Shown piece by piece: positions 2,429 to 58,218 of a stretch of 64,000 nt of DNA; the stretch's first letter is position 1; every line of letters starts with the position of its first letter. A program made the position numbers and the translations under genes. The DNA comes from Asterias rubens (lineage: Eukaryota), in assembly GCF_902459465.1 (NCBI RefSeq), contig NC_047080.1:9424001-9488000 (forward strand), given 5' to 3'. The notes beneath the pieces are model-generated. The model was not told the origin of the DNA. It saw only the letters and a program-made list of their open reading frames with translations, and searched no databases.

Positions 2429-5400
2429 CTACAGAGCCGGTTTGCTGAGCATCCGTCTTTTCTTGTAGATTCCAAAGAACCACATCAGACCAGTTAGGAA
2501 GGAGAGACTGTACCTGGTATTTATAATGCAAGAAGATAATGAAAGTAACCTTTAAATAAAACTGATATGATAGTTTGAGCAGCCATCTAAGTGAAGGCCA
2601 AGAGTCGGCTAAGAGGTGGCTAGTAGTTGGCTTTCTAAACTGCTAGGGCTAGCTACAATCCCGGCCATATCTCGTTGGGCCCCCCTGCCCCCTTTCAATG
2701 TTGGTTCCATTTGCCGACTGTGTTCCAAATTACAGTCAACATTGAGCGGGGGGCAGGGGGGCAAATGTTTTGAATGTGAATGTGAATGGGAAGTGCACAG
2801 GGAACTGTTGTATCAGGAAAGGGTGGCCCAAGCATTTTGGCCGGGATTGTAGGATCTAAGAGCAAGCTTGAGCCAGCTTGAGCCCGAAAGAAGCCAGCTA
2901 GGGCCAGCTCGGCCCAGCTAGGGTCAGCCAAGAGCCAGCTAGGGCCAGCTAAGAGCCAGCTGGGGCCAGCGACAACCCAACTATGGCCAGCTACGAACCA
3001 GCTAGGGCCAGCTAAGAGCCAGCTAAGGCCAGATAAGAGCCAGCTAGGGCCAGCTAATTAGAGCCAGCTAGGGCCAGCTATAAGAAAGCTAATTAGAGCC
3101 AGCTAAGAGTCCGTGAAGAGCCAGCAAAGAGACAGATAGGGCCAGCTAGGCTAGGGGCTAGCTAAGAGCCAGCTAGGGGCCACCTGAGAGCCAGGTTAGA
3201 GTCAGCTAAGAGCCTTTTAAGAGCCTGCTAAGAGCCAGCTAAGAGCCAACAAGCAGCTAACAGCCAACTATGAGCCATCTAAAGGTAAGCTAGAGCCATT
3301 TAAGAACCTGCTAAGAGCCAGCTAGAGGCCACCTGAGAGCCAGGTTAGAGTCAGCTAAGAGCCTTTTAAGAGCCTGCTAAGAGCCAGCTAAGAGCCAACA
3401 AGCAGCTAACAGCCAACTATGAGCCATCTAAAGGTAAGCTAGAGCCATTTAAGAACCTGCTAAGAGCCACCTAGGGGCCACCTGAGAGCCAGGTTAGAGT
3501 CAGCTAAGAGCCTTTTAAGAGCCTGCTAAGAGCCAACAAGCAGCTAACAGCCAACTATGAGCCATCTAAAGGTAAGCTAGAGCCATTTAAGAACCTGCTA
3601 AGAGCCAGCTAGAGGATACCTGAGAGCCAGCTTAGAGTCAGCTAAGAGCCTTTTAAGAGCCTGCTAAGAGCCAGCTGAGAGCCAACAAGCAGCTAACAGC
3701 CAACTATGAGCCATCTAAAGGTAAGCTAGAGCCATTTAAGAACCTGCTAAGAGCCAGCTAGGGGCCACCTGAGAGCCAGGTTAGAGTCAGCTAAGAGCCT
3801 TTTAAGAGCCTGCTAAGAGCCAGCTAAGAGCCAACAAGCAGCTAACAGCCAACTATGAGCCATCTAAAGGTAAGCTAGAGCCATTTAAGAACCTGCTAAG
3901 AGCCAGCTAGAGGATACCTTAGAGCCAGCTAGAAGCCAACTAAACGCCAGCTAGCGCCAGTTAGGTTCTAAGAGCCAGTTTGAGCATGCTTAAAGAAAGC
4001 TTGGAGCTAAGAGCCAGCTTAGAGCTGAGAGCAAATCACAGCTGGAGCCAGCGATGATTTTTGAGTTGGCTTTGTGCCAGCTGAATGCCAGCCATGAGCC
4101 AGCAAATAGTCAGCAAGGAGCCAACTAAAAGCCAGTTAAGAGCAAGCTAGAGCTAATCGCGGAATATGTACTATCTAAGAGCCAGCAAAGACAGGGCCAA
4201 TGGTGTTACTTTTAAGCCAGGGTAGAAGGAATTACTTAAATGTACTGACCATGTTATCATGTACTGAAGATGCTCATTCCGTAGTGTGACCCTTGACTGA
4301 CCTCCAATAGGACCACCTGGGATATCACACGCTGAAATAAACAACAAAACATCAAATGTATCAGATGACAAATAGAATTATAATCTCAGTAGTTGTGAAT
4401 AAGATAAACTTCTAGAGAGAGCGAAAACACCCAAGAGTGAAAACACCCAATGTTAATTGTGAGAAAAACCACAGGACTTAATCACAGACAGACAAAATGA
4501 AACATGTTATTTTATTGAAGTCTGAGCAGACTCAGCTGGGAAGTACATAGTATAGAGAGAGAATTACACAGTAAGAACTGTACTAAAACAAAATAACCTT
4601 AGACCTAAATTATCCAGATAATAAATATTGACGACATTGAGACAAAAATAAACAAGAAAAGAACTATCAGGGAAAACTAAATGCATCTTTTTCTTTTGAT
4701 AACTTAGGACTGAACAAAGACACAATTGCTAGAGGGGAATGTGAACCAACAACCAACAACATCTGGTTAACCTGCTGGCACTCCACTATCTCGCCCTATG
4801 TTGGCAGTTTCCTTATTGTATCAACATGTTTTGTCTGGGTGACAGTCAAAACTGTTAGCTGTCGTGTAGCAAGAGATCACACTTCAAGGCAGTGGACACT
4901 GCAGTGGTTCCTGTCACTGCAGGTAAAAACCTGAGGCAAAGTTTAACTTACAGCTGTCTGCATCAATCATAACAGGTTCAGCTCCGGTGACCTTTGACAT
5001 CTCTTCAAGGTCAAGGTAATGCCAACGACCTCGCTGTGTATCATTCTTGGGCATAAATGCTGCCCTCTGTCAAAAATAACAAGTAAACATGTAGGTTAGT
5101 TATAGTCGCCTAGTTTTCCCTACAACTTTGAGATTATTGTAGTCGAAATAGTGAATAAATTAAAGGAAATTAAAATCATACCTTTTCTGTTTTGCGCACA
5201 AGACCAACTAGCTCGATCTCCCCTGAAATCTGCAAGAAAAAAATTAAATCAACCTATTAACTAAACTATAATGGGACAAAATCTTGACTGCTTGAGTTTT
5301 ACCCTGGAATAACTCTCTTGTATTGAGCTCCCACATCTAAAACTGAAATGTCCCTCTTTATCTTCTCTCCACTGGGCTCTTAGCTAGTAGGAGAGATTAA

Positions 5401-8400
5401 ATTCAGTTTTCTGAGAGTCCTTGGCTTCACAAATAAAATAAATTAAATTAAATGAAATTTATGTCAACATCCGAATTAAGTTTTTTTTTTAAATTGGGAA
5501 AAAATCACAAACATGCTTCTTACCTGGCCCCTTTGTCTTTTAGCTGGATCAGTCAAAGATTTGGAAACAAACCCTCTGTTTACCAAAATGCTCACTCTGT
5601 AATAAAACAAAATAAACAGAGTAAAATGTTAAAGACAGTGGACACTATTGGTAATTGTCAAAGACCAGTCTTCTCACTTGGTGTATATATGCATACAATA
5701 ACAAACCTGTGAAAATTTGAGCTCAATTGGTCGTCGATGTTGCGAGATAATAACGAAAGAAAGCTCTTGTTATCATGAAATTGTGGTTGATTTTGAGACC
5801 TCAATTTCTAAATCTGAGGTCTCGAAATCAATTTTGTGGAAAATTACTCCTTTCTCGAAAAGTATGTCACTTCATGTTTTATACTATCAACCTCTCCCAA
5901 TTACTAGTCACCAGGTAAGGTGTTATGCTTATAATTATTTTGGTTAATTACTAATATAGTGTCCACTGTCTTTAAAGGCAGTGGACACTATTGGTAATTG
6001 TCAAAGACTAGCCCTCACAGTTGGTGTATCTCAACATATGCATAAAATAACAAACCTGTGAAAATTTGAGCTCAATCGGTCATTGAAGTTGCGAGATAAC
6101 AATGAAAGAAAAATAACCCTTGTCACACGAAGTTGTGTGCGTTTAGATGGTTGACTTCGAGGCCTAAAGTTCTGAATCTGAGGTCTCGAAATCAAAATCG
6201 TGGAAAATTACTTCTTTCTCAAAAACTATGGCACTTCAGAGGGAGCCGTTTCACACAATGTTTTATACCATCAACCTCTCCCCATTACTTGTCACCAAGA
6301 AAGGTTTTATGCCAACAACTATTTTGAGTAATTACCAATAGTGTCCACTGCCTGTAAGTAACAAACCACAAGGGAAACTTACTGCATACACTTCAAACAG
6401 TTTGGGTTTGCACAAAAACAAATTGACTTGAGATAATTTTGATAATTTTCAATTTTTGTACTGAGGTCCTCCATGGAGAGCACCGCTTGGCGCTGATCGA
6501 AGCTTATCGTCAATAAAGTTGAACCCACAACCTTGTGATTGCAAGTCCAGCAGTCTAACCACTGGACCCCGATGCTTCTTCATCAAATGCAATCCACACT
6601 TGACCTAAGTCTGGACAGTAAAATGGCCTGACAACATTATGAAATCAGCGGTTAGTTTGGTAGGATTCACACCCACAACCTTGTGATTGCAAGTCCAGCA
6701 GTCTAACCACTGGACCCAGTGTCATCACACTTACCCCAAGTCTGGACAGTAGAACGGCGTGACAACATGAGCGCCTGGTTCTCCCCTTGATATTAAACTA
6801 CCAGCGTCTCCTTGCGGTGGTTTGTTCAAGGTGCGTGGTAGAATTAAGACCTCTTTGGAGTGGTCGAACTCTCCTCGGACCTTAACACGCTGGTACTCGA
6901 GAGCTGCAAGATCGTCTGTGCTGCAAATGAAATAACATTTTCAGACAAAATATTTAGCATCATTGTTTCAGCATGATACTGAAGTAGAATGGTTCTTTGC
7001 TACAGAATGTCTACAGACCTACATCAGCAACTATCCAATACTGTAGAATGACTGGAGATGCTGGACTTGTTGACTTACATTCTACAGACTGTCTACAGAG
7101 CTAGTTTGCTTAGCATACTTCATGTCTTGTCGCCTTTCAACTTTGCTGGGAACATTTCTTTGTTTGTTGAGCAAATTTAGTTTTCCAAAAAAATTAACAA
7201 GGCTTCGTTCGTTTGTTCAGATGATCTTCCAAACAAGGGAACCATGATCTTCCAAACAAGGGAACCATGATCTTCTAAAACAAGGGAACCATGATCTTCT
7301 AAAACAAGGGAACCATGATCTTCCAAACAAGGGAACCATGATCTTCCAAACAAGGGAACCATGATCTTCTAAAACAAGGGAACCATGATCTTCCAAACAA
7401 GGGAACCATGATCTTCTAAAACAAGGGAACCATGATCTTCTAAAACAAGGGAACCATGATCTTCTAAAACAAGGGAACCATGATCTTCCAAACAAGGGAA
7501 CCATGATCTTCTAAAACAAGGGAACCATGATCTTCCAAACAAGGGAACTCGGGAAACTCCCACAAGGAGGGGAAACGGCAAGCTGGAAACAGCTGGGGCC
7601 AATTTCATAGTGCTGCTAAGCACACAAATTTGCTTAGCATGACATTTCTCCCTTGATAAAAACAGGAATGCCAACCAAATTTCCAAGTGATTTTCAGGAC
7701 TAGCAAACAACGCAACATGCAACAAATGGAAATTTGGTTGGTAATCCTGTTTTTATCAAGGAAGAAATTTCATGCTAAGGCAATTTTTGTGCTTTATGAA
7801 ATTGGGCCCTGATCTCTCTCATACAAACATTGGTTTAATTATGATTTTGCACAAATCAAGAAAGTGCGATTTGGTAACTAGACTACAATACTTATTCTAG
7901 TCATTCAGCAAAGAGCAATTAGCTTGGGGGATTTGAACCCATAACCTTGTAATTGCAAGTCATGCAGTAAAAACACTGGACTGCAGTGACAACAGAAAAA
8001 AAAAGGTTCAGGGTTTGTAGTTTATGCACTTACTCAATTGATTTGAGTGCAACTGGTGGAGCAGTTGTCCTCATCTCCATATCGCGAATTAAATTCAGCT
8101 TCCACTTCCGACGCTTTACTTGCCACGTTCCAAGACAAAATGCCGCTGCCGGAATAATCAATAATAAATGACCAAACGCAGATGGTATGTCGGAGGTATC
8201 GGATGAAGCGCCCTCTTGAGTCCTACTTTGATTAGCTGGAGCTAAGTTTGGCTTGATCGTTGACAGGTGACGACAAAGTTGATGTCTTTCCAAAACGTCA
8301 ACAAGCAACGACAACCTTTGCTGTAATGAAATTGAAAGCAAAATATAAAGTTGGGTTTAGCCCAAGTTCTTTCTATAAAAGTCTAGCACAGTACAAAAGC

Positions 8401-10037: not shown

Positions 10038-10252
10038 ATGGCTAGTCCCAGTTACCATCTCAAGTTTGGCAAAGGTGCTGCGGAGTCAGTAGATCAATAT
10101 TTGGAATATAGACGGTAAGGATGGAGTTGTTTACATTTGTAGGATTTGAAACTTTGCATGGTGGAAATACGATATAGAAAGGTTTGTGGTAACACCATGT
10201 AATGACTATCTCTAATGGGAAAAATTTTACGTCGTCGCCACCAACTTCCGGC

Positions 10253-16300: not shown

Positions 16301-17346
16301 AATATCTATTAATTCATTGCGGTACCCCTTGCAAACACATAAGATTGGAATTGCCTCTAGCCAATGGACTAGCTGGTTGGTAAGACATCTGCTCTAGCAA
16401 TGGAAAGGCCATTGGTTTTAAATCCCATGTGAGTGATTTGCCTTTAGATTTTTTCACAGATATGTGGAAAGTACTGAGTATATACATGTAGTGCTAAATA
16501 CACATCGGTGTAAGATCCCCGATGCAAAACTATCATCTAATAAAAAGTGAAACTCATGAGTGAGTTGTTTTAGTCTGCATAATGTCTAACTGTTTTGGTT
16601 CGGCTCACCTGATAGGTCCAGCCAGTGAGGAGTTCCTTAACCAGCCAATCACCTCATCCGATAATCCTTTCCTTCGGATGCATGCAAACACCTTCAAGGA
16701 GCTTGAGGGCCCTGATAAGAAAGTAGACGCTCTGACCGAGAAGATGGCAAACTTTAAGATGACCGGAACCGATGCAGATATGGACTATTATGAGATGAGG
16801 TACCAACAGAGGGTAAGAAAAATATCTCAAATTTTAATGATAGAAGGAAGGCAAATCAAGCTCAATAAACTGTTCAACTTTAAACCCCTTTTCCTCAGTT
16901 TTATTCTCTTGTATTTCTTGTTGTTCCTACTTTCACAACATTTGAACCAAATGTGGTATCAAAATTGAACAGATTATAGATTTTGCTTTTTCAAATTACC
17001 TGGGTCGACAACCAACTCATTTTGATTGACCCCATCACATATGCTGAAAAGAAAGCTAAAAACATTAATATATCACATTGTGTTTTTTTGGACGATTGTT
17101 TTGTCTCTTTCATTTCAACAAACTATAACCTAAATCGTATTCCATGAACCTATCAGCAAATGAGATGTCTGTTTAATGCATTTTATTATTTGACAGCTAA
17201 AAGAAGACAGAATGAAGAAAAGAAGTGTGCAGCCTAGACCTGTCTCAAAACCAGCACAAGGGGGCGCTGTTTCAGGCAGTGCAAAAGCTAAGCCTGTTAG
17301 CGCAAAGACCAGTAGAGGACCAACAAGAAGTGCTGTCAAGAAATAA
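10038..17346 (+). CDS. FAM221A: Protein FAM221A, 6 exons, 335 aa
   Basis: Exons 10038-10114, 14261-14443, 15194-15384, 15802-16011, 16616-16812, 17197-17346 (1008 nt, phase-consistent). VDQYLEYRRIVGEDDGG, NRLFVSW, CKLVGPETPCFCQHRYKQHKTD and PYAAMGGLTGFSSLAEAYMRLDDSGIG match remembered human FAM221A. Confidence 0.95.
10218..12774 (+). mobile_element. Merlin-superfamily (IS1595/IS1016-related) autonomous DNA transposon, 2557 bp
   Basis: 8-bp TSD CTCTAATG (10210-10217 and 12775-12782); 27-bp imperfect TIRs starting GG with a perfect inner GTCGTCGCCACCAA; single transposase ORF. Confidence 0.92.
10993..11928 (+). CDS. Merlin / ISXO2-like DDE transposase, 311 aa, intronless
   Basis: N-terminal Cys motif (CRYC...WRCTHRGC); VEIDESKFGRRKYNRGR; IISDCWKAY; VNHSLNFVDPTTGAHTQNIE carry the D, D, E pattern typical of ISXO2-like domains. 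TATATAAG at 10935-10942 and AATAAA at 11998-12003. Confidence 0.93.
   Translation: MNTFWNAERLFETVATPDAAIAFCKERGLIADAPDCRYCRHPLTWSVKTDHADGFSWRCTHRGCRKRSRNCSIRHGSWFSDSKMSLKKILKLTYYWAARATTSAAIRETSVHEGEQTSSKTVVDWFTFCREVCLRAVEERCSKGIGGPGMTVEIDESKFGRRKYNRGRLVEGKWVLGGICRETKEIFLIEVPKRDSATLIPLIKEYVAAGSTIISDCWKAYDCLSQENFTHLTVNHSLNFVDPTTGAHTQNIECQWWQIKRSLPSTHATSSTDGFGFRLAEYMWRRQNALVDHFDQILSDILLLYKPPKRF
13121..13584. mobile_element. 464-bp non-autonomous element with 8-bp TSD (Merlin-like termini)
   Basis: TSD CTAGAGTC (13113-13120 and 13585-13592); TIR (C/G)GGTCCTACTACTTGCCGTCAACTC with subterminal GCCGTCAACTC repeats. Confidence 0.85.
14922..15088. mobile_element. PIF/Harbinger-type MITE (copies 43923-44038 and 50970-51147)
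   Basis: TTA TSD at all three copies; TIR AGGC(C)GAGTCACACTGCAGC(G/A)ATA; nearly palindromic body. Confidence 0.8.
16310..16540 (+). mobile_element. Diverged copy of tRNA-containing repeat family B
   Basis: Shares GGTACCC, TGCCTCTAGCC, GGAAAGTACTGAGTATA, CACATCGGTGTA and CCCCGATGCAAA with 26049-26329. Confidence 0.7.
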
Positions 17347-24038: not shown

Positions 24039-26048
24039 TTAAAGACAACCTCAAACTCAATTGTTGTTGTTTTCACTACGCACTTTCCCATTACATTGCT
24101 TCTGTGCAGTTCATAAAATGGCGACAGACAAAACAGGTGTTCGGTTGAATCACGCGCTTTGTGTTACGACTCAATTTGATTGGCTGATTGTCCTTGTGGG
24201 CGGAGCTAGGAAATCTGGGTCACCGTTTTGGTCCTTGCTCTATGATTTGCGTGGATTCCAGCTGTAGCATTTTAAAACAGTTTTATGCAAATCTTTCCTG
24301 CATGTTCTGAGGTTGCTTTGTTTTGTAGAATTTAGTAGAATTTAGTAGAATTCCGAAAAGTGATCCTTTCGTAAGAATAGTAATATTTTTAACTTCATTG
24401 GCCTCAGCGCTGTACCTATAGGGTTACATTATGCATCTATGCATTATGATAGGTTGCACATAGGGATATAAGCACTTTTTGCCAAAATTCCGTTTGCCTT
24501 CAATTAAATAAGTGCATTTTCAGTGCATTATAATCTTAATGTTAACTTACTGTTTTTGAATTAAGTTAGTAAAAACCAATACACTGTCTGCTGTTAATTT
24601 ACAAATGTTCAAAGACCCAAATTATAATTATCACAATAGCGTAACAATGTCAAATATTTCAAATGGGGCACGGGGGAGGGGGGGGGGGAGCATCCCGTAC
24701 CAATGACGCCCTTATAAACAGATAGACACAGAAGTGTTACTTTGAAACATTTAATCAACCACAAAACACATTGGCAATAATTATTTGTTCTGCCTTTGTT
24801 GATCATTGTACTTTCTCAAAACTTCATATTGCAGAGTCAAACATTTTGTGTCCCTTTTCAGGAGGATGGCACCTACAGGGCTTTCTAGTGTAAATATATA
24901 GGAAGCAAAAACAGCAGGTAAACATTGTGACAAAAACGTTAATAAATGCTTAGAAATTGCTTATAAATGGTTTGACTTCTATTCGTATTTTGTGAATTGG
25001 AAGCATATAGCAGCAGCAGTCTGTTCTTTGGCAAAATTTCTGATAAAATATTAATAAAAGTGACACATAAATTAATTATAACAGTTTACCTTAAAAAAGT
25101 ACAAGGGTTATAAACAACTTCTTAACAGGGTTGAATTTTTTTTTTTTTTAAATTGCACACACACAGTACTTGGCATCCAAAATAACAAACAATAAATACT
25201 ACAAAATAGGGGTTGTCGTATATGTAAATATACTAAATAGCAACAAAAATACTACTAATATACTTGAATAATCTTTGGCACAGAATTATATTCATTTTAG
25301 AAAAATTAACAGCAAATAAAAATTTACATAAAGCAATTATGTGGATGGACAATGCCACAAATCCGTTTACAAATTATGCATAGTACACACTCCGACCTGA
25401 TCTCTATTTATCAGTTCAATCAAACTAGACTTGTTAAAAATTCCACACACTTCTATCTACATAAATACATATAATTGTAAATACTTATATTTGTATTGAA
25501 CTATATTTTGAGATTCACATCTGGAAGTTTTGATTTAAGATCTAAACATCTTTATCTTTGGTAGTTAAATTTAAAGTGATTGCAGAGGATTTCAAGTGAT
25601 GCAAAATATACTGCTGTTTATTTGCCTGATCCCTGTATAGAAAATAACATAAATCAGTACTGATTTTCATGTGACAAAAATGTTATACTTATATTTTCCC
25701 TTCTCCTTCTTGGTGATTTGCTGAAGTTTGGCTTTAGGATTCAGCTTCTGGCTCTGTTTGATGTTTAAGGATTTGGGTACTTTAATTTTGTAACACAAAA
25801 CACAATGTCCACAGATTTACATTAAACTTACACCATTTGAAGATAATGATAGTAGAAAGCATACCTTAAAATATTAGTTGCTGAGGTGCTGTAGTTTTTG
25901 AAAAATGTGTATAACAATGTCATGAAAGTACGTTTTTACATGCTAAAATCATTTTCGTCTCATGATCACTGAGACGAAAATTATTTTCATACTAACTTTA
26001 GAGGGAGCCCTTTTCTCACAATGTTTTATACTATAACAGCTATCCAAT

Positions 26049-26329
26049 ATTCTTTATCCCCGATGCAAATTTAACATCTCTTATATCGTTGAGGTACCCG
26101 CTGCCAAAACATAGGTTTCGAACTGCCTCTAGATATCGGGCAACTTGGTAAGACAATTCTCTAGAATTGCAAGGGTCGTGGGTTCGAATCCCACCCGAGT
26201 AAACAGGCCTGTGATATTTTTGTCACAGGACTCGGGAAAGTACTGAGTATACAGTGCTAACACACATCGGTGTATGGGTACACAAACAAAAAATATTCTT
26301 TATCCCCGATGCAAATTTAACATCTCTAA
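26049..26329 (+). mobile_element. tRNA-containing retroposon-like repeat family B, terminally redundant copy
   Basis: TSD TATCCAAT (26041-26048 and 26330-26337); 36-bp direct repeat 26046-26081 = 26292-26327; internal B-box GGTTCGAATCCC. Confidence 0.8.
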
Positions 26330-27689
26330 TATCCAATGCTCGCAAAATACTTAGTGTAAGAATAAATACATGCACAGTCACCACAAATTAAAAGTTGAGT
26401 ATACATTTTGTGATATAGGTACATTCACTATAGTAATAGATAAAACTCTATCATACTATCAATACATACAGGTTATAAATAGTATATATTTAAATACATG
26501 CATGTGATGTTATTGGGTAAAAATACAAGATAACTAAAATAATATCTGACCCAGAAACATGGCAAGATGGAAGCCCTTCTTGGCAATAGGTTTCAGTGGT
26601 TATAATAGAGTTAAAATAATCGGCTGCACACACGACAAACTATATCCATGATACCTATTAATGTCATGTTATATAAATACATAAAATCCACGCTTGATTT
26701 GTTCACTATTCTGTTAAAATTAGATACATTTGATGTTGAATTCCAGCTGTTCAAGAGTTAAAGGCACTGGACACGCTTGGTAATTAATCAAAATATAAAG
26801 TAGCATAACAACTTATTTGGTACTGAGCAACTAAGGGCCGTTGATAGTATAAAACAATGTGAGAAACGACTCCATCCCTCTAAAGTTATAGTTTTTGAGA
26901 AAGAGGTAGTTCCTCACTAAAATATTATTTGAATCTGAGAGAGACGTCAGGCCAGAAGCTTTTCTTAGACATCTGAAAGCACAAATATATTTCTGCAACA
27001 ACAGTGTTTTTCTGTCATTATTTTCTTGCAACTTTGATAACCGATTGTGCCCAATTTTTTTTTACAGCTTTGTTTCTTTATGCATGTGTTGGGATACACC
27101 AAGTGAGAATGGTCTTTGCCAATTACCAAACACGCCCAGTGCCTTTAATGAACTTGTGGCTTGATTACATGATGATATACCAAGCCTGTGACAATTTCAT
27201 AGAGCTGCTTAAGCTCAAAAACTCTTGGAATATATACCACCTTTGAACTACACTTCTTCCAATAATAAATCTATCACCACAACGTCAATTTAACAATTCT
27301 AATTCATTTCTCCATTCATTTTGCTATGCAAAGTGTCGACAGATCTTTCTAATTTCTTTACAGAACCGTAACCAAATTGCATAGTAAATTTCCATTATAG
27401 GTAATTTGTGTGACCTATTTTTGACCACCTTTGTCTAAAAAGTTTCTCAGGGATATTAAAATGGGAGAAAGTTAAGATGGAGGTTTCTTTTGGAGAAGTT
27501 ACTAAATAAAGTGACATGCGAGTGCCAAGAATATTTGTGTGGATATTTGATTCCTCTAATGAACAAAAATGTTAATGTTTTACTGTATATATTCAAGAAA
27601 AAAACAGGTATATATATAGAGTGCATCTGACCTTATGATGAACCACTTCTAAATCTGTTTAAAATATCAGCCTCAACCTCATTATACTT

Positions 27690-28179: not shown

Positions 28180-31100
28180 TCACTTCTCAATCCATGATGA
28201 CAAGAGGTCGATAGGCAGAGGGAAGATGATGGTGGAGTTCTTCTCAGCAGAGATGGTCTGTAAAGTCTGAAGGTATCTGAGTTGGAGGGCATTAGGTGCC
28301 TCGGCGATGATGTCGGCAGCCTCCTTGAGAGCTCGAGATGCATTCTGCTCACCCTGTGCGGCTATCACCTACATAGAAACACAAAACCATCAATACATTA
28401 ATATTATGACCTGAGACAACTTTTGTTTTTGTTCTATTATTTGTTTTAATGAGTCAACACCCAACTCGGAATCGGCTCGCTTAACTCGTCTGTGCTGTCG
28501 ACCAAATCAACTGACACCAGGGGCCCGAGATTATCCAAGAACAAATTGTTGTTGTTGAGTGATTTTGTTTGGTTCCAATATAAACTGCCTTGGGTTGGCG
28601 TATTTGGCATCTTTCCTCGCCCTCCACCCCTGGAACCACGCTTTGGATCCCATCAGGGGGGGGGGGATGTGGATTAGGTTTTTCAGTCCCCACCTGATTG
28701 CGTGGGTTTTCCCAGCATTGAATATTTCTCTAGGAATATCCTCACATCTAAAATGTCCTCCTCGTTTGCTTTTCTAAAAGTTCTATAGCTTCTTTCTTAA
28801 ACAGATAAAAATAAATGAGAAAGAGAAGACTGACCTTAGCACGTGCTTCTCTTGATGCTTCAGCTTCTGCTGCCATGGCTCTCTGCAGTTGAAGGGGCAA
28901 CCTTACATCCTTACTGAATTATAAAAATCATTATAATGTATCATTAACAATAAGGTAGAATGTGACTTTGGTACACGCAGTGTTTGAACTGATACATTTG
29001 TACTGAAAATGTTTCCATCTCTGAAAAAAAAGCTAGTGGGTTCCATAGAGATCCATTAGGCTCCGCCCTCAGCGCACGTGTGGGCAAGAACATGTGAGCC
29101 TCTCAGCGCACGTGTGGGCAAGAACATGTGAGCCTCTCCAATGCCATTCTGCACAACACTTCCATGTGCGCCCTGCATATGGGCACGCATGTCAGACTAG
29201 TCTTGGTTCAAGACTCTCCTGGATTTGTCACAAGAGGGCGCGCTATCACCCCAACGCGCTATCAACCACGAACCGCTATCACCCGAGAACCGCTATCACA
29301 GGAGAGTCTTGGTACATTCGTTCAATCTAATTTGCATAATTTATGTACACGTCACAGCTTTGTTGCTAGCGCGTGTGCGCAGGTTTTATAAAGGGGTGGG
29401 CTCTGCGGGAAACCGACGCATGCGCATTATGTTTCCCCCCGATTTTGGGGGGAGATTGAACGAATGTACCAAAACTCTCCTGTGATAGCGGTTCTCGGGT
29501 GATAGCGGTTCGTGGTTGATAGCGCGTTGGGGTGATAGCGCGCCCTCTTTTGACAAATCCAGGAGTGTCTTGAACCAAGACTAATGTCAGACTTGTGTTG
29601 GACTTTTGGTTTCGCAATGGGTTGTGATGGGTCAATACGCAATGGGGCGGAGCTTAATGGATCGGTCTATTACCAAAGGTATACAAATCCCAAAGGTCTA
29701 AAAAGATCAGGCCTGAAAAAGATGTCACACTTACATTTCAACTCTCTCCACTTTTACACCCCATGGATCCGTAGCTTCATCTAACACCGATTGCATATGA
29801 CTACTGATGGACTCACGAGAGCTCAGTACCTCCGCTAAGGTCTTCGTACCCAAGACATTCCGCAGAGTTGTTGCTGCCAAGAGCTCTGTCGAGCGCTTAA
29901 AGTTCTCCACGTTAACGACGGACATAGTGGGGTTCTGAACGCGGAAGTACACCACAGCGTCTACAGTGACTGTCACACTGTCCTTGGATAGGATCTATGA
30001 ACAAGAAAGGAACAGTTATTTTAGAGTTTTATAGACTTTGGCAACAAATCTGCCAAATAAGAGGCTACTATAAATGTTGCAACACTTTAAAACAACATAC
30101 CAAGAAACTCTGAGGCAGACCTGGAGAAGAGAGTGGCTGCTGGATATGATTTCACCATGAATACCCTTGAACTTAAATGTTAATAATTAGGGGAGATGAA
30201 GGTTAAATAAGAATAACATTTGTTTTTACCCTTACAACGATGTGTACTTTCCCAAGTTCTGTGACAAAAATTCACAGGCAAGTCACTCATGTTGAATTTG
30301 AGTACCCGATGCAAAATTAAAACCTAATAAATCATTGTTGTACCCGCTGCTAACACATAGGATTTAAACTGCCTCTAGCCAATCAGGCTAGCTCGGAGTT
30401 CCAGTGTACTAGTAAATACACCTGCTCCAGCAACGTAAAGGTCGTGGGTTCAAATCCCACCCTAGTGATTTGAATGTGGATTTTTTTCACAGGACTCAGG
30501 AAAGAATAAAGTATACAGTCTATTAAAATATACATCGATGTAAGGGTAAAGTAAGTATTATTATTCTTTTTCTCCAACGCAAAATTATCATCCATTAAAT
30601 TAGAAGCAAGAACATTACCTCCTGTGGTGGAACATCAAAGGACAGTGTCCTCAAATCAATCACTCTGAATTCATCAATACATGGCAGGATAAAGAACAAC
30701 CCTGGTCCTTTGGCACCACCAGGGAGAAGACGTCCTGCTCGGAAGATCACCGCTCTCTCGTATTCTTGTACTGTCTGAGATGGTGAGGAAAAAAAAAAAA
30801 TTAGTAGAGAAAAATAAACCCAAAATTAATGACCAACATTCAGTAAAAATCTTCTTATACAACGCTGTATGTTGTAGTAGCACTTAGAGACTAACTTATT
30901 ACATAACAACTGTGTAATAAGCTTTCGCAGCTACAACTACTTCATCAGACGCATCAGAAGTAGTTGTTGCTACACGAAAACTTAGGCCTACGCAGTTTTT
31001 ATGTAGTTAGTTAGTCTGTAAGTGCTAATACAACATTCCGTGGTTTATCTCTATCAAACCAACAAGGCTATCTTTTATTATTAATTTATAAAAAGATAGC

Positions 31101-33687: not shown

Positions 33688-34871
33688 AGGGACATCGCAA
33701 ATATATATTGACGCCAATATTCGTGACTTTTACCCCAAGTTGCAAATATTGACGCCAATATTGACGCCAATATTCGCGACTTGGCCCAAAGTTGCAAATA
33801 TTGATGCCAATATTGACGCCAATATTCACGACATGGGCTACACGTCGCAAATATTTACGCCAATATTGACGCCAATATTCACGACATGGGCCCTATGTCG
33901 CAAATATTGACGCCAATATTGACGCCAATATTTACGACATAGCCTCAAGTTGCAAATATTTTTGCCAATATTGACGCCAATATTCACGACATGACCTAAG
34001 TCGCGAATATTGACACCAATATTGACGCCAATATTCACGACTTGGCCCAAAGTCGCGAATATTGACGCCAATATTGGCGCCAATATTTACGACATTGCCT
34101 CCAAGTCGCAAATATTTACGCCAATATTCACGACATGGGCCCCAAGTCGCAAACCCGCTCAGGCGTGAATATTCATTGTTTTTTTAGCAACCTAGGTAGC
34201 TGGGTGGGCAAGAAAATAGTCTGGCGCACTGGTCCCGATCTCGCTCGCGCGCTCTGACTCCCCAAATTGCTTGACGCCTGAGTGGGTTTGCGACTTGGGC
34301 TATGTCGTGAATATTGGCGTCAATATTGGCGTAAATATTTGCGACGTGTAGCCCATGTCGTGAATTTTGGCGTTAATATTGGCGTCAATATTTGCGACAT
34401 AGGGCCCATGTCGTGAATATTGCCGTCAATATTGGCGTCAATATTTGCGACATAGGGCCCATGTCGTGAATATTGGCGTCAATATTTGCGACATTTGACC
34501 CATGTTGTGAATTTTGGCGTTAATATTGGCGTCAATATTTGCGACATAGGGCCCATGTCGTGAATATTGCCGTCAATATTGGCGTCAATATTTGCGACAT
34601 TTGACCCATGTTGTGAATATTGGCGTCAATATTGGCGTCAATATTTGCGACATAGGGCCCATGTCGTGAATATTGGCGTCAATATTGGCGTCAATATTTG
34701 CGACTTTGGGCCAAGTCGTGAATATTGGCGTGAATATTGGCGTCAATATTTGCAACTTTGGGCCAAGTCGTGAATATTGGCGTCAATATTGGCGTCAATA
34801 TTTGCAACTTGGGGTAAAAGTCGCAAATATTGGCGTCAATATTGGCGTCAATATATATTTGCGATGCCCCT
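33688..34871. mobile_element. 1184-bp foldback-type element with TTAA TSD (Kolobok-like)
   Basis: TTAA|AGGGACATCGCAAATATATATTGACGCCAATATT ... AATATTGGCGTCAATATATATTTGCGATGCCCCT|TTAA; both arms are arrays of ~45-bp units in inverted orientation. Confidence 0.88.
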
Positions 34872-39514: not shown

Positions 39515-39985
39515 GATTTCAAATACAGAATCGCCTTTGATTCCCTGGCTGCCACTTCAAAGATTGTATCGTATACTCAGTTGTGATCCCTGGCTACATG
39601 GCAGTTAATTAACAGGTATGTGGCTTCTGACTGTCACCCATGAACAAAGATATTGACAAAGCAGGGAGACCGCCAATATAGGGCTAGATAGCTCAGTTGG
39701 TAGAGCACATCATCCAGAGGTTGTGGTTTCCAATCCCACTCTGGGATTGCAAGGGTCGTTGGTTCGAATCCCACCCGAGTAACATGTCTGTGATATTTTT
39801 TCACAGGACTCGGGAAGTACCGAGTATACAGTGCTAACACACATCGATGTATGGGTAAAAACAATCAATACTCGTTATCCCCGATACAAATTTAACATCT
39901 CCTATAATCCCATTCTAGTCAATTTGTCTTTGTTCACCCAACTCGTATATCCAGTCAGTTTCCCTTGTTGTTTATAAATTGATAT
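39515..39985 (+). mobile_element. Family A tRNA-containing repeat interrupted by a 5'-truncated family B copy (39743-39905)
   Basis: Family A sequence (TAGATAGCTCAGTTGGTAGAGC ... CTAGTCAATT..TTTGTTC) resumes after the insert; target duplication AATCCCACTCT (39732-39742) / AATCCCATTCT (39906-39916). Confidence 0.75.
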
Positions 39986-40974
39986 TAAATAAATCACAAC
40001 TACAGAAATACATATTTTACCCTGTCAAACTCAAAAGACATCATTCTGCCCCGATGCTTAATTCTTAAATGGTTTGATATTTTGTGCTTTGTCGGCTTTT
40101 GAGAGACACGAAGGGCCGGCAGAAGCTGATCAGGGCCCAATTTCTTAGAGCTGCTTCAGCACAAAAAGCAGCTAAGTGCAACAAAATGATAGTGAGAAGG
40201 TATTGAATGTTCAGGCTTTGAATTTCGTTTCTGATGGGGCACATCAATTTTCCTCTAGTAAGGGGCACTTCTATGAGGAAAATTTTAACTTGTATTTAAA
40301 CTTTCCAAAGGGCACCACAGCAAAACACACAGGGCACCACTGCAATTGCTGTGGGTGCCGTGAGTTATTTTGAGGCCTGATAGTACATGATGTTCCACGC
40401 TTGATTTAGTTTCACCAATGCCAGAAACCATGTCACGCAATGCCTGTAATGGTGTTTATCAATGAAATTTTCATCAATATTATAATTGGTCAGACTTGAG
40501 ATATTACCAAACGTGTTCAGAAGAAAACTAAGTGAATACCAAAACAATATGGATGCATTGCTTTGCAAAAATGTAGCTTCAAGTTTGTTTTGGGACATTG
40601 TAGAAAAACCTGGTACAAAAACCTATATGCAATAGTATGACAAGGCCAATGATGTTAGATCTCTTCCTATTGGTGAAGCCCAGCTTATGGGAGACTTTTG
40701 AGACGCTGGTGGCAGTAGACATAACGATCCTTTTTTGCGGCTCTGAACATGCTGCACATGCTCGGTATTGCGCACATAGATCTGAGCACGCGCATTCCAA
40801 AAGTCTCTCATTGGTTAATCCACATTGTTTAAAGGTCAGCCGTGGTGAGTAACAACAAAAGAAGGAGATTGTTTGTGAGTAAAACCTCAGCAGATTGCGT
40901 GGTGCGTTGTCATAGTGACTAAGTTAGCGATGACATCATCGCTAGGGAGTTCTTATTGACTATGAGGTTCTGCT

Positions 40975-43900: not shown

Positions 43901-46900
43901 TATCTCTAGTTAGCACGAGTTAAGGCTGAGTCACACTGCAGCGATAGGGCCTAACGAAATGGAGAATCAGATTAGAATGCGTTCTTTTTGCGTCGTGATT
44001 GTTATCATTTTCGTTGTCGCTGCAGTGTGACTCTGCCTTTACTCCTAACTTAGGTCTTAAGTTTTTTAATAATATCTCTTAGGACTAGTCCTAAGTTAGG
44101 TCTAGCCCTAACTCTTTGTGAAATTGGCCCCTGGGGTCACATTGAAAAAGTACACAATTACTAAGCCTGCAGCTGGTTTCACGAAACGCTAGGATTAATC
44201 CTAACTCGAGTTAGGACGAGTAAACGGTCCTAACTTAAGATGGGTTCAATGCGTCCTACGTATTTGGATACGGAACTGAACCCGCCCTAAGTCCTAAGAT
44301 TAATCCTAAGTTAGGAAGAGTTTGGTGAAATCGACGGCTGGGCGACTAGTGGAGATTAATACTCGGTTAGCTGCGCCCCAATTGTTCACGACTTGACATA
44401 CATGTAGCAATCAATAGTCGCGACTTTGACACTAGTCACCCATGCTTAAGCAATAGTACAATAGGTCTAAAATTAAAATAAAAAGCACCGAGCTCAAAAA
44501 GGACACAAAATCTTTACAAAAAATTAAATTCAAAATAAATATTTACTTACACTGCTTGTTCATCCAGTTCGTTTCCTATTGTCTGTCCCATGTGTTTTAA
44601 CACACCAACGCTATCGGCTACTCTAACGATATTATCATCCTGGGCTTCAATTAACATCTGCATGAGAAACAACCAACCAGTCAAAGATATTTAATGAATG
44701 TTAGTTTTGCATCAGGGATAAAGAATGTAACAGGGTGTTTTAAAATGTTGTCAAAACTCTTAATCATTTTTTGAACTTAGATAAAAAATTATAAAAAATT
44801 AAATGAAAAACCATTGTTTACCTGTTGCTGTTGCCGTGATTCGTCAATATAATTCTGATTATTCTCTTCTATTTCATTGTCGAGTTTGCTGTACTTTCCT
44901 TGCGATTTACTTGGGCCATTATTCATCAATGCCTTTTGAGAAAAAAAAAATACACATAGAAAATGTTATACGCAAAACCTTGCTGAAAACATGCTAAAAA
45001 CTTGATATCGCAAATACAAAGAATGAATGGGAAATTCTTAACAGGGCCAAATTCATGGCTCTGCTTACGCTCAGGTTGGCAGGGAATATTTGTTGTGTGC
45101 GTGCATAGTCCACAATACTAGGTATTCTTCGCTTGATACACAGCTAGCACAGAAATTCGGCACTTGTCATGTAAGCAGAGTATGGTGATCAGAAGCGCAG
45201 CACTCGGCGGTAAGCAGAGCCATGAAATTGGAAAGTTAGGACTATCACAGTGGGTTCTTATGATACCAAGTCGAGAAAAAAAAAAGCTGCCCTCGATTGT
45301 GATGAAGCGCTAAATATATACCTCAATCTTTCGGCCTATAAGCCGCGCTGTGTATAAGACACAGAAGACTTTCTGGGTGGCAAAATTAAGGTATAAGACG
45401 TGGTTTATACACAAAAGATTACGGCATAAAAACGGGTTACTATTTTATAATTTATTATCAATATAAACCACAAGGGTAACTGACTGGGTAAATTATGATT
45501 TTTGGGGGTTGAACAAAGAATTGACAAGAGTGGGATTCGAACCAACGACTCCCTGATTAACGTGCTGGCGCTCTATTAACTGAGCTATCTACCCCTTAAT
45601 TGGCAGTGTCCCTATTTTGTCAATATCTTTGTTCGGGGGTGCCAGTCAGAAGCCATACAAACGTTAACTGCTGTGTAGCCGGGGATCACACCCAAATTAC
45701 AATACAACCTGGGAAGCGGCAGCCAGGGGATCACCTTAAGGGGATGCAACTTTTTGTTACAGATATCAATATAAACCACATAATTTATTTTAACGTTACC
45801 TGCCGACTCCTCTTCTCTTCTCTTGTTCTGGTACTTGGACTGGCCATGTGGTCTTTCATTTCTTGCATTTTCCTTTTGGTGTCAGTGACGAACTGTCGTC
45901 TTATCTCTAACTCACTTCCTTCTAGCTTAAACTTCCTTGGATTTGCTTCAACAATACGTAAAGGGTTGATAGTTAAGGAATAAGTAATTCTGTAACTTAC
46001 TTACTGACATAAAAGGAAGATTTGATATAACTTTACCCGGTTTGTCAAGTTAGCTCAGTTTTAAGAAAAGTTGGGGTTCGAATCTGGTCATGACACTTGC
46101 GCCCTTGAAAAGGGCACTTTACCATAATTGCTTCATAAAAAATTGGGAAGATATAACATAAGTTTACCAGGTTTCAGAGTAGCTCAGTTTTAAGAAAAAT
46201 ATGAAATATAGTGGCGTGCCTAGTTCACCGAACCCAAGCTCTGGTTTTGTCAGCAGTAGAGTGTGGGTTCGGTACCTGGTCATGACACTTGTGCCCCTTA
46301 AGCAAGGCATTAACCATATAATTGCTTCGTAAAAAGTTGGAAAGGTAGTGCATTCTTCTATCAGCCAGGCTCCTAGTGGATGATACCCATGCCTACATCC
46401 TTACGGACTGTGAAGGGGGTTTCAGCCCCAAGAGTAGGTGGCAACGTGCCCCTGGTGACAGTTGATTTGGGTTGATAACCACAATCGGTTAAAAATGATA
46501 ATAATAATATTGAAGTCTTATAGCGCACGTAGTCCAGCCCTCACCTTGCAGTGGCCATCCGGACTAGTGATTGGCAGTCTCTCATAAATACAAAAAGAAA
46601 GGAATTGAACTGCCTCTAGTCACCCTGCTAGCTCGGTGGTCCAGTGATAAGATATCTGCTTTAGCAAAGCAAAGGCCATGGGTATAAATCCCATCCTAGT
46701 GATTTGCCTGTGAGTTTTTTGCAGCACTTGGGAAAGTACGCCTACTGAGTATACAGTGCTTCATACACATCTGTGTAACTGTAAAGGCCGGTTTGTAGTC
46801 GGTCGCACGATCATAACAACACACAGTTTATAGGCCTCAGCAATGACTATCAAATGATTTTTTTTAGGATTGCGCATCAGGGTTTCCATTGTGCGACCTT

Positions 46901-49556: not shown

Positions 49557-58218
<8,662 letters not shown>

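Follow-up and report, generated by a model that had tools for sequence, protein, structure and literature searches.

Insertions of Penelope-like elements (PLEs) are described as partial tandems truncated at the 5' end, with 5' copies in inverted orientation and, optionally, a tail of 30–40 bp (PMC8557442; PMC8969392; in the text available for each). In vitro, according to the accessible part of PMC11167929, a Poseidon protein nicks AT-rich DNA on both strands and extends each of them, its reverse transcriptase (RT) initiates internally on the RNA at two sites bounding the tail, and this nick-and-extend reaction is independent of hammerhead cleavage. MRC1 and other non-autonomous Chlamys elements are non-coding, bear pseudo-LTRs, occur as head-to-tail multicopies without a hammerhead and have 3' ends similar to those of autonomous families; the available sections of PMC8557442 mention no tRNA-like gene in them. 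Animal non-LTR retrozymes form tandem units of 170–400 nt with long target-site duplications (TSDs), and a dependence on PLEs and a pLTR origin have been proposed for them (PMC7229834; bioRxiv 10.64898/2026.07.22.740005; both as far as their text is available). Each retrozyme unit carries a type I hammerhead and is associated with circular RNA (PMC7229834, same portion). The SINE-like hammerhead tandems of schistosomes combine a Pol III promoter in the tandem unit with an active hammerhead, and only tandems can propagate; the accessible part of their description gives no PLE tail signature (PMC6765202). Cassandra, Helenus and Ajax are non-autonomous elements of the LTR/integrase type with a small-RNA gene and terminator inside the repeated unit (PMC10886601, in part).

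Here we describe an abundant 259-nt repeat of Asterias rubens, found in a 64-kb stretch of DNA (hereafter the window). Like MRC1 and its relatives, the unit is non-coding, forms pseudo-LTRs and head-to-tail multicopies, and lacks a hammerhead; it differs in its tRNA-like gene and in a helper that is likely a Poseidon-type family with a C-terminal endonuclease, in an animal. It shares tandem units of 170–400 nt and long TSDs with the retrozymes, and departs from them in carrying a tRNA-like gene and no hammerhead. With the schistosome tandems it has in common a (here putative) Pol III promoter within a tandem unit; it differs from them in having no hammerhead, and in a PLE tail signature that the accessible part of their description does not give. 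We consider it probable that this non-coding repeat is copied in trans by an RT/GIY-YIG endonuclease of the Penelope/Poseidon type; the unit is likely a ribozyme-free, tRNA-bearing, Poseidon-driven non-autonomous PLE.

The window copy (26049..26329; + strand, as are all its features) consists of one 259-nt unit preceded by its own final 37 nt, between 8-bp TSDs read directly from the sequence (TATCCAAT at 26041..26048 and at 26330..26337). The right TSD shares its first bases with the unit's final 2 nt, a microhomology that blurs the exact ends of the element. The flanks belong to an abundant host repeat, in which the empty-site form of the left TSD is present; minus the element and one TSD, they read through like other copies of that repeat. 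The empty junction is spanned by 15 BLAST hits, by few bases because the host copy is truncated just beyond, and the empty-site motif occurs at two loci. Both the 8-bp TSD and the insertion within another repeat, claimed in an earlier note on this DNA, are thus borne out.

The 5' tail copy (unit 223–259; 26049..26085, by BLAST) is the remnant of a preceding unit, that is, a pseudo-LTR. It is repeated at 26295–26331 with identities of 36/36 and 38/39 in two BLAST pieces. The ~33–36 bp previously reported as shared by both ends are a real repeat (37 nt), and represent the shortest kind of partial tandem rather than a fixed terminal repeat. The unit head, or leader (unit 1–59), occupies 26086..26144; it includes a stretch antisense to the B box (26114–26123) that is predicted, from the fold of the reference unit L002, to pair with the T arm. 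The tRNA-like part follows at 26145..26202 (unit 73–130), with 13 nt (unit 60–72) missing from its 5' side, and because of this loss ARAGORN is silent across the window. The B box lies at 26181–26191 by sequence reading, and the tRNA-type boxes are internal, as first described. Also present are both small hairpins noted earlier (CCTGTGA/TCACAGG and AGTACTG/CAGTGCT). By sequence and fold, the loop of a hairpin at 26208..26229 contains a Pol III terminator-like T run, which is T5 in this copy and T6 in the majority of young units. A hairpin at 26239..26258 has the loop AGTATA, identical to that of stem II of Poseidon-type hammerheads; the resemblance, to families D and E, is by eye, and its status as a relic is without statistical support. 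A long 3' stem (CATCGG/CCGATG, 26265..26311), defined by end mapping and folding and resembling the 3' stem of Poseidon-type families, contains in its AT-rich loop the first of two preferred 3' ends (unit 223 = 26295), and end mapping places the second (unit 259) at the close of a 36-nt tail (26296..26331). The observation behind the first description is real.

Multiple copies in the window were also correctly reported, the count being six copies and one tail-only piece instead of five copies. A second young copy, 5'-truncated (unit 87–259) and flanked by a TSD, lies inside a different tRNA-bearing repeat (39739..39906, + strand; BLAST and end mapping). The old copies lie at 30244..30592 (+ strand; ~75% identity, with a preceding tail and an inverted 5' piece), 16301..16512 (+ strand) and 57713..57899 (− strand, with a preceding tail), all by BLAST, and at 46593..46785 (+ strand) by sequence comparison; the tail-only fragment is at 44681..44726 (− strand; BLAST). 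At 75–80% identity, old copies retain the tail–head order unchanged.

In the genome (417.6 Mb) we collected loci with three queries, 30 loci for each: the full-length unit (a set in which terminal repeats are favoured), the tail and the head. To these were added the window, bystander copies and 37 stretches of 10 kb taken at random. Removal of duplicates and of copies below 86% identity or 40 nt left 98 young insertions, whose pieces diverge from the majority sequence by a median of 2.4%. Their 3' ends fell at unit 250–259 in 65 cases, at 218–228 in 20 and elsewhere in 13; in the head-selected set, whose query contains neither end, the corresponding counts were 15, 9 and 4 (n = 28). The two preferred ends (unit 223 and 259) are 36 nt apart. 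TSDs (7–19 bp, mode 12, 74% AT) were found for 37/65 insertions ending at 250–259, 11/20 ending at 218–228 and 0/13 ending elsewhere, compared with 14/398 mismatched flank pairs as a control; by the test used, 50 of the 98 insertions have none. An inverted 5' piece is present in 16/98, its outer end lying at 221–225 (nine) or 259 (five) and hence at the two preferred sites in 14/16, where the arm called direct was chosen by length. Starts at the 5' side are scattered, from unit 4 to 237 in the tail-selected set, and 10/26 tail-selected insertions cross the 259-to-1 junction. Exact 22-mers occur genome-wide 1852 times for the tail, 575 times for the junction and 0 times for controls. Sequencing runs under three organism labels contain the unit.

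Two further features were considered and rejected. A third 3' end at unit 129–130 (the tRNA 3' end) rests on two cases with no TSD, and locus L048 holds the remainder of the unit further on, indicating later disruption. Transduction of 5' flanks was suggested by one pair with a common flank (L134/L135), more likely a segmental duplication.

The anatomy and end statistics of the unit are direct observations, and its two-end layout recurs in PLE families of the same genome. Like non-autonomous PLEs, it forms 5'-truncated partial tandems (pseudo-LTRs) and inverted 5' copies and has a two-end tail. PLE-type mobilisation is in our view highly probable.

If the element were an ordinary SINE of tRNA origin that depends on a LINE, its tandems being the product of later local duplication, several of these features would also be expected. 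As in SINE2 elements, the unit has variable TSDs and a tRNA-like gene with A and B boxes, a tRNA-derived Pol III promoter as judged from its sequence; LINEs, too, give variable TSDs, 5' truncation and inversion. However, the tRNA is internal, beginning at unit 58 with 57 nt upstream of it in every full unit, and just 2 of the 19 tail-selected copies without an inversion begin close to the tRNA head. Two 3' ends stand in place of a simple tail, copies carry no A-rich, poly(A) or microsatellite tail, a T6 directly follows the tRNA, and longer-than-unit copies occur as entire partial tandems enclosed by one TSD pair. The SINE explanation is very improbable and already largely refuted. The earlier note had named, as outcomes contrary to its reading, copies mostly starting at the tRNA head and copies with terminal inverted repeats and TSDs of fixed length; neither was found. 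The absence of paired inverted termini and the variable TSD length likewise set the unit apart from DNA transposons (MITEs).

A miniature LTR element of the Cassandra/Helenus/Ajax type, whose LTR would carry the small-RNA gene, is scarcely conceivable. There is precedent for an internal Pol III promoter and terminator in a directly repeated unit of a non-autonomous element (PMC10886601, available text), an arrangement that our unit shares as judged from its sequence. Its repeat, however, ranges from ~30 nt to many units, its ends are not TG..CA, and it shows truncation, 5' inversions and two 3' ends. TSDs of the TRIM/LTR type are fixed, at 4–5 bp; the unit has neither a fixed short TSD nor two fixed LTRs. 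This explanation is refuted by the variable TSDs and the truncation.

The unit was defined by tandem copies (reference L002:1538–1796). ARAGORN places a tRNA at unit 58–131 in 8/12 other loci, and Rfam RF00005 scores 48 bits on an intact copy; young units hold a complete tRNA-like cloverleaf. ARAGORN labels young copies tRNA-Ser, in keeping with the anticodon AGA, but the long variable arm is absent. An AGC anticodon is found in 6/13 old copies, and we infer an Ala origin for the tRNA-like part. The unit folds much better than shuffles (z −6.1). In the predicted fold the leader (unit 28–53) is base-paired to the tRNA part, and a forced cloverleaf is 22 kcal/mol less stable, so the model has the cloverleaf masked by an antisense leader. 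The leader pair U49-A66 of young copies is C-G in old ones (C in 6/9, G in 7/9), a single compensatory event. We also considered a Pol III promoter on the reverse strand: a B box is present at unit 29–38, yet the A-like motif adjoins it, and the stretch is read as the antisense leader. A run of at least six T lies downstream of the tRNA in 87/111 young units. Pol III would mostly terminate at such a run, and a full-unit transcript is therefore not easily made from the unit's own promoter alone.

GIY-YIG and RT searches of the genome revealed PLE families carrying both domains, and several named relatives of the genome's PLE protein are from echinoderms. Two young families have intact frames of 921 and 931 aa with a zinc linker (Neptune-like) and many near-identical copies. 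Three more distant families (C, D and E) have no Neptune zinc linker and are Poseidon-like by the criterion of PMC8557442 (available text), clade names being assigned here from the presence of the linker and not from a tree. Poseidon-type copies have two 3' ends ~34–37 nt apart (nine and nine in family D, five unclassified). The first falls within a CATGG/CCATG stem, in its AT-rich loop, while the second lies ~20 nt past ATGCAA. The unit is laid out in parallel, with the CATCGG/CCGATG stem and then the same ATGCAA letters. TSD-like matches of 9–15 nt were seen for 10/19 Poseidon-type copies, a figure without a control.

A covariance model built from 18 of 24 Poseidon-type 3' ends, no unit copy included, aligns over all 80 positions to unit 181–259 (E 0.0019 within one unit), a region picked post hoc after a by-eye likeness and with rough calibration. 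At 12–24 bits it also picks out this region in the majority of 27 loci, the copies not being independent. In a search of the 64 kb the window copy scored 14.2 bits (E 1.3), among AT-rich chance matches of 11–16 bits. With sequence only, nhmmer placed the best match at the tail, and 48/1000 shuffles scored as high (not significant). As sequence, the link to the helper is weak; from the covariance match and the shared layout of the ends, a Poseidon-type PLE of this genome is the probable candidate helper.

The same PLE mechanism with another helper, either the young Neptune-like families or an unsampled PLE, is a minor possibility. The former have the intact frames and near-identical copies, and the 931-aa family has two ends. 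An unsampled PLE is allowed for by the coverage, 150 of 265 RT candidates having been scored. In a set of 230 candidates, of which 150 were scored, the longest Poseidon frame was 533 aa and none was both intact and full-length, which counts against a Poseidon-type helper. However, the 921- and 931-aa families show no likeness to the unit above shuffles and were rejected as helper on this ground. Copies of the 921-aa family mostly terminate in TA repeats, and those of the 931-aa family carry a tail of ~60 nt, whereas the tail of the unit is 36 nt and its targets are non-repetitive.

Several other observations concern these PLEs. The Poseidon-type hammerhead pattern has 1865 exact matches, CAGAAGA replaces the usual CUGANGA core in family D, and many family D/E copies (L193–L222) are only ~100–150 nt long, starting just upstream of the hammerhead. 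The window itself contains a family D 3' end with tail (10134–10209, − strand; 84 bits). Two loci (L167:3513–5306 and L168:3483–5231) carry host-like frames (597 aa and 582 aa). Towards the C terminus these are similar to the Neptune-like zinc linker and GIY-YIG domain (53% and 34–41% identity), and their N-terminal parts are B-box/NHL-like by eye; a capture of the PLE endonuclease domain by a host gene is possible.

No hammerhead or other ribozyme was found in the unit with Rfam, a motif scan or a hammerhead model from local PLEs, in agreement with the by-eye search of the earlier note. Above chance level, Rfam returned only tRNA-type matches on the window copy and L002. A half- or dead-hammerhead at unit 156–192 was rejected, since a model from 13 hammerheads of the genome matched the loop only (E ~9).

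The form of the RNA template bears on how tandems arise. A retrozyme-like cycle, in which a multimer is cut once per unit, ligated into a unit-length circle and copied round by the PLE enzyme, appears unlikely; the cutter would be an unrecognised ribozyme or host RNase P/Z acting on the cloverleaf. Such a circle would fit the divergence of units, which is 2.8% within an insertion and 5.3% between insertions and falls to 0.6–1.2% in long arrays. Copying also usually passes the tRNA start without a stop, and the cloverleaf is intact and can switch with the masked fold. The negative ribozyme searches count against it, as does the masked fold lying 22 kcal/mol below the cloverleaf fold. At site 254, alleles are concordant in 42/48 multi-tail insertions, and both alleles occur together in 6/48, which also counts against a monomeric circle. 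An equally doubtful proposal is that the tRNA-like unit replaced the retrozyme hammerhead, serving as promoter and as a cut site for host tRNA nucleases. This site would be exposed whenever the cloverleaf escapes from the antisense leader, and multimers would then be cut to single units and closed into circles with no ribozyme involved.

The most informative locus is L243:1028–4239 (G000:C2, ~22.614–22.617 Mb), a palindromic 3.2-kb insertion of ~12 units with a TSD of ~12 nt, comprising ~8 inverted and 4.4 direct units. One private change is common to all 12 head-bearing units and absent at that site from 109 other pieces, which a circle would explain. However, two unit-specific indel variants recur in equal order in both arms, for which a monomeric circle needs a fold-back step. 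This is most simply read as an older array having supplied a mixed multimeric RNA on which priming took place twice, which favours a multimeric template over a monomeric circle. We sampled 18–26% of the RNA reads of each of four runs from two studies (unstranded libraries). Records on the unit make up 0.1–0.2%, both directions alike, and 57–78% of them continue into unlike sequence; no discrete unit transcript with sharp starts or ends was seen in these reads. Junction-spanning reads exist and, in these unstranded libraries, are accounted for by genomic tandems. In these reads the unit lies mainly inside other transcripts. The earlier proposal of a Pol III-driven retroposon copied from circular or concatemeric RNA thus holds as to a non-autonomous element of PLE/retrozyme type and a longer-than-unit template, and of its two template forms the multimer is favoured by L243.

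For the Poseidon-driven repeat that we favour, the following cycle can be proposed. Tandem copies would give rise to multimeric RNA, either from the tRNA-type promoter by reading through the T run or by read-through from outside. The PLE protein would recognise the 3' stem and tail and nick AT-rich DNA, and reverse transcription would begin at an internal site of the RNA, either unit 223 or unit 259. Copying would run back over one or more units until it stops, leaving a partial tandem, and priming at the second nick would produce the inverted 5' arm. Arrays may lengthen through insertion into the element's own copies or through template jumps.

A second repeat family of like anatomy, with a unit of ~330 nt, occurs in the window (45381–45720, − strand; 39580–39990) and at L152, L136, L063, L085, L102, L112 and L126. 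It has an internal tRNA-like gene within an inverted repeat, forms partial tandems and has some ends in TA repeats. Several of its copies adjoin 3' ends of the Neptune-like 921-aa family, and it is possibly a Neptune-driven counterpart. The window further contains a tandem repeat of 53 nt that forms two large blocks in inverted orientation (33705–34854) and minisatellites at 21–1470 (46/32 nt), 2850–4050 (11/21), 7207–7563 (23–24) and 55141–55810 (11).

In the literature covered, which lies outside subscription journals, Repbase and Dfam, no tRNA-bearing, ribozyme-free parasite of PLEs is described; a candidate helper clade for such an anatomy is new here. Repeats of this kind are readily mistaken for SINEs, for LTR elements or for tRNA genes, as the tRNA-Ser calls on young copies illustrate. 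With the unit, the PLE cis-signal comes down to ~80 nt in which two start sites are mapped, and the genome that carries it also offers a candidate helper. Its short RNA makes the origin of PLE tandems, tails and inversions directly testable, and L243 is a good locus for how PLE inversions form. If the tRNA-like gene did replace the hammerhead, the element would be an equivalent of SINEs that depends on Penelope elements, processes its RNA by a separate route and is represented by at least two families in this genome. SINEs are known to parasitise LINEs, and Cassandra and Helenus to parasitise LTR elements; if our reading is true, a tRNA-promoter parasite of a third class, the telomerase-related PLEs, would complete this pattern.
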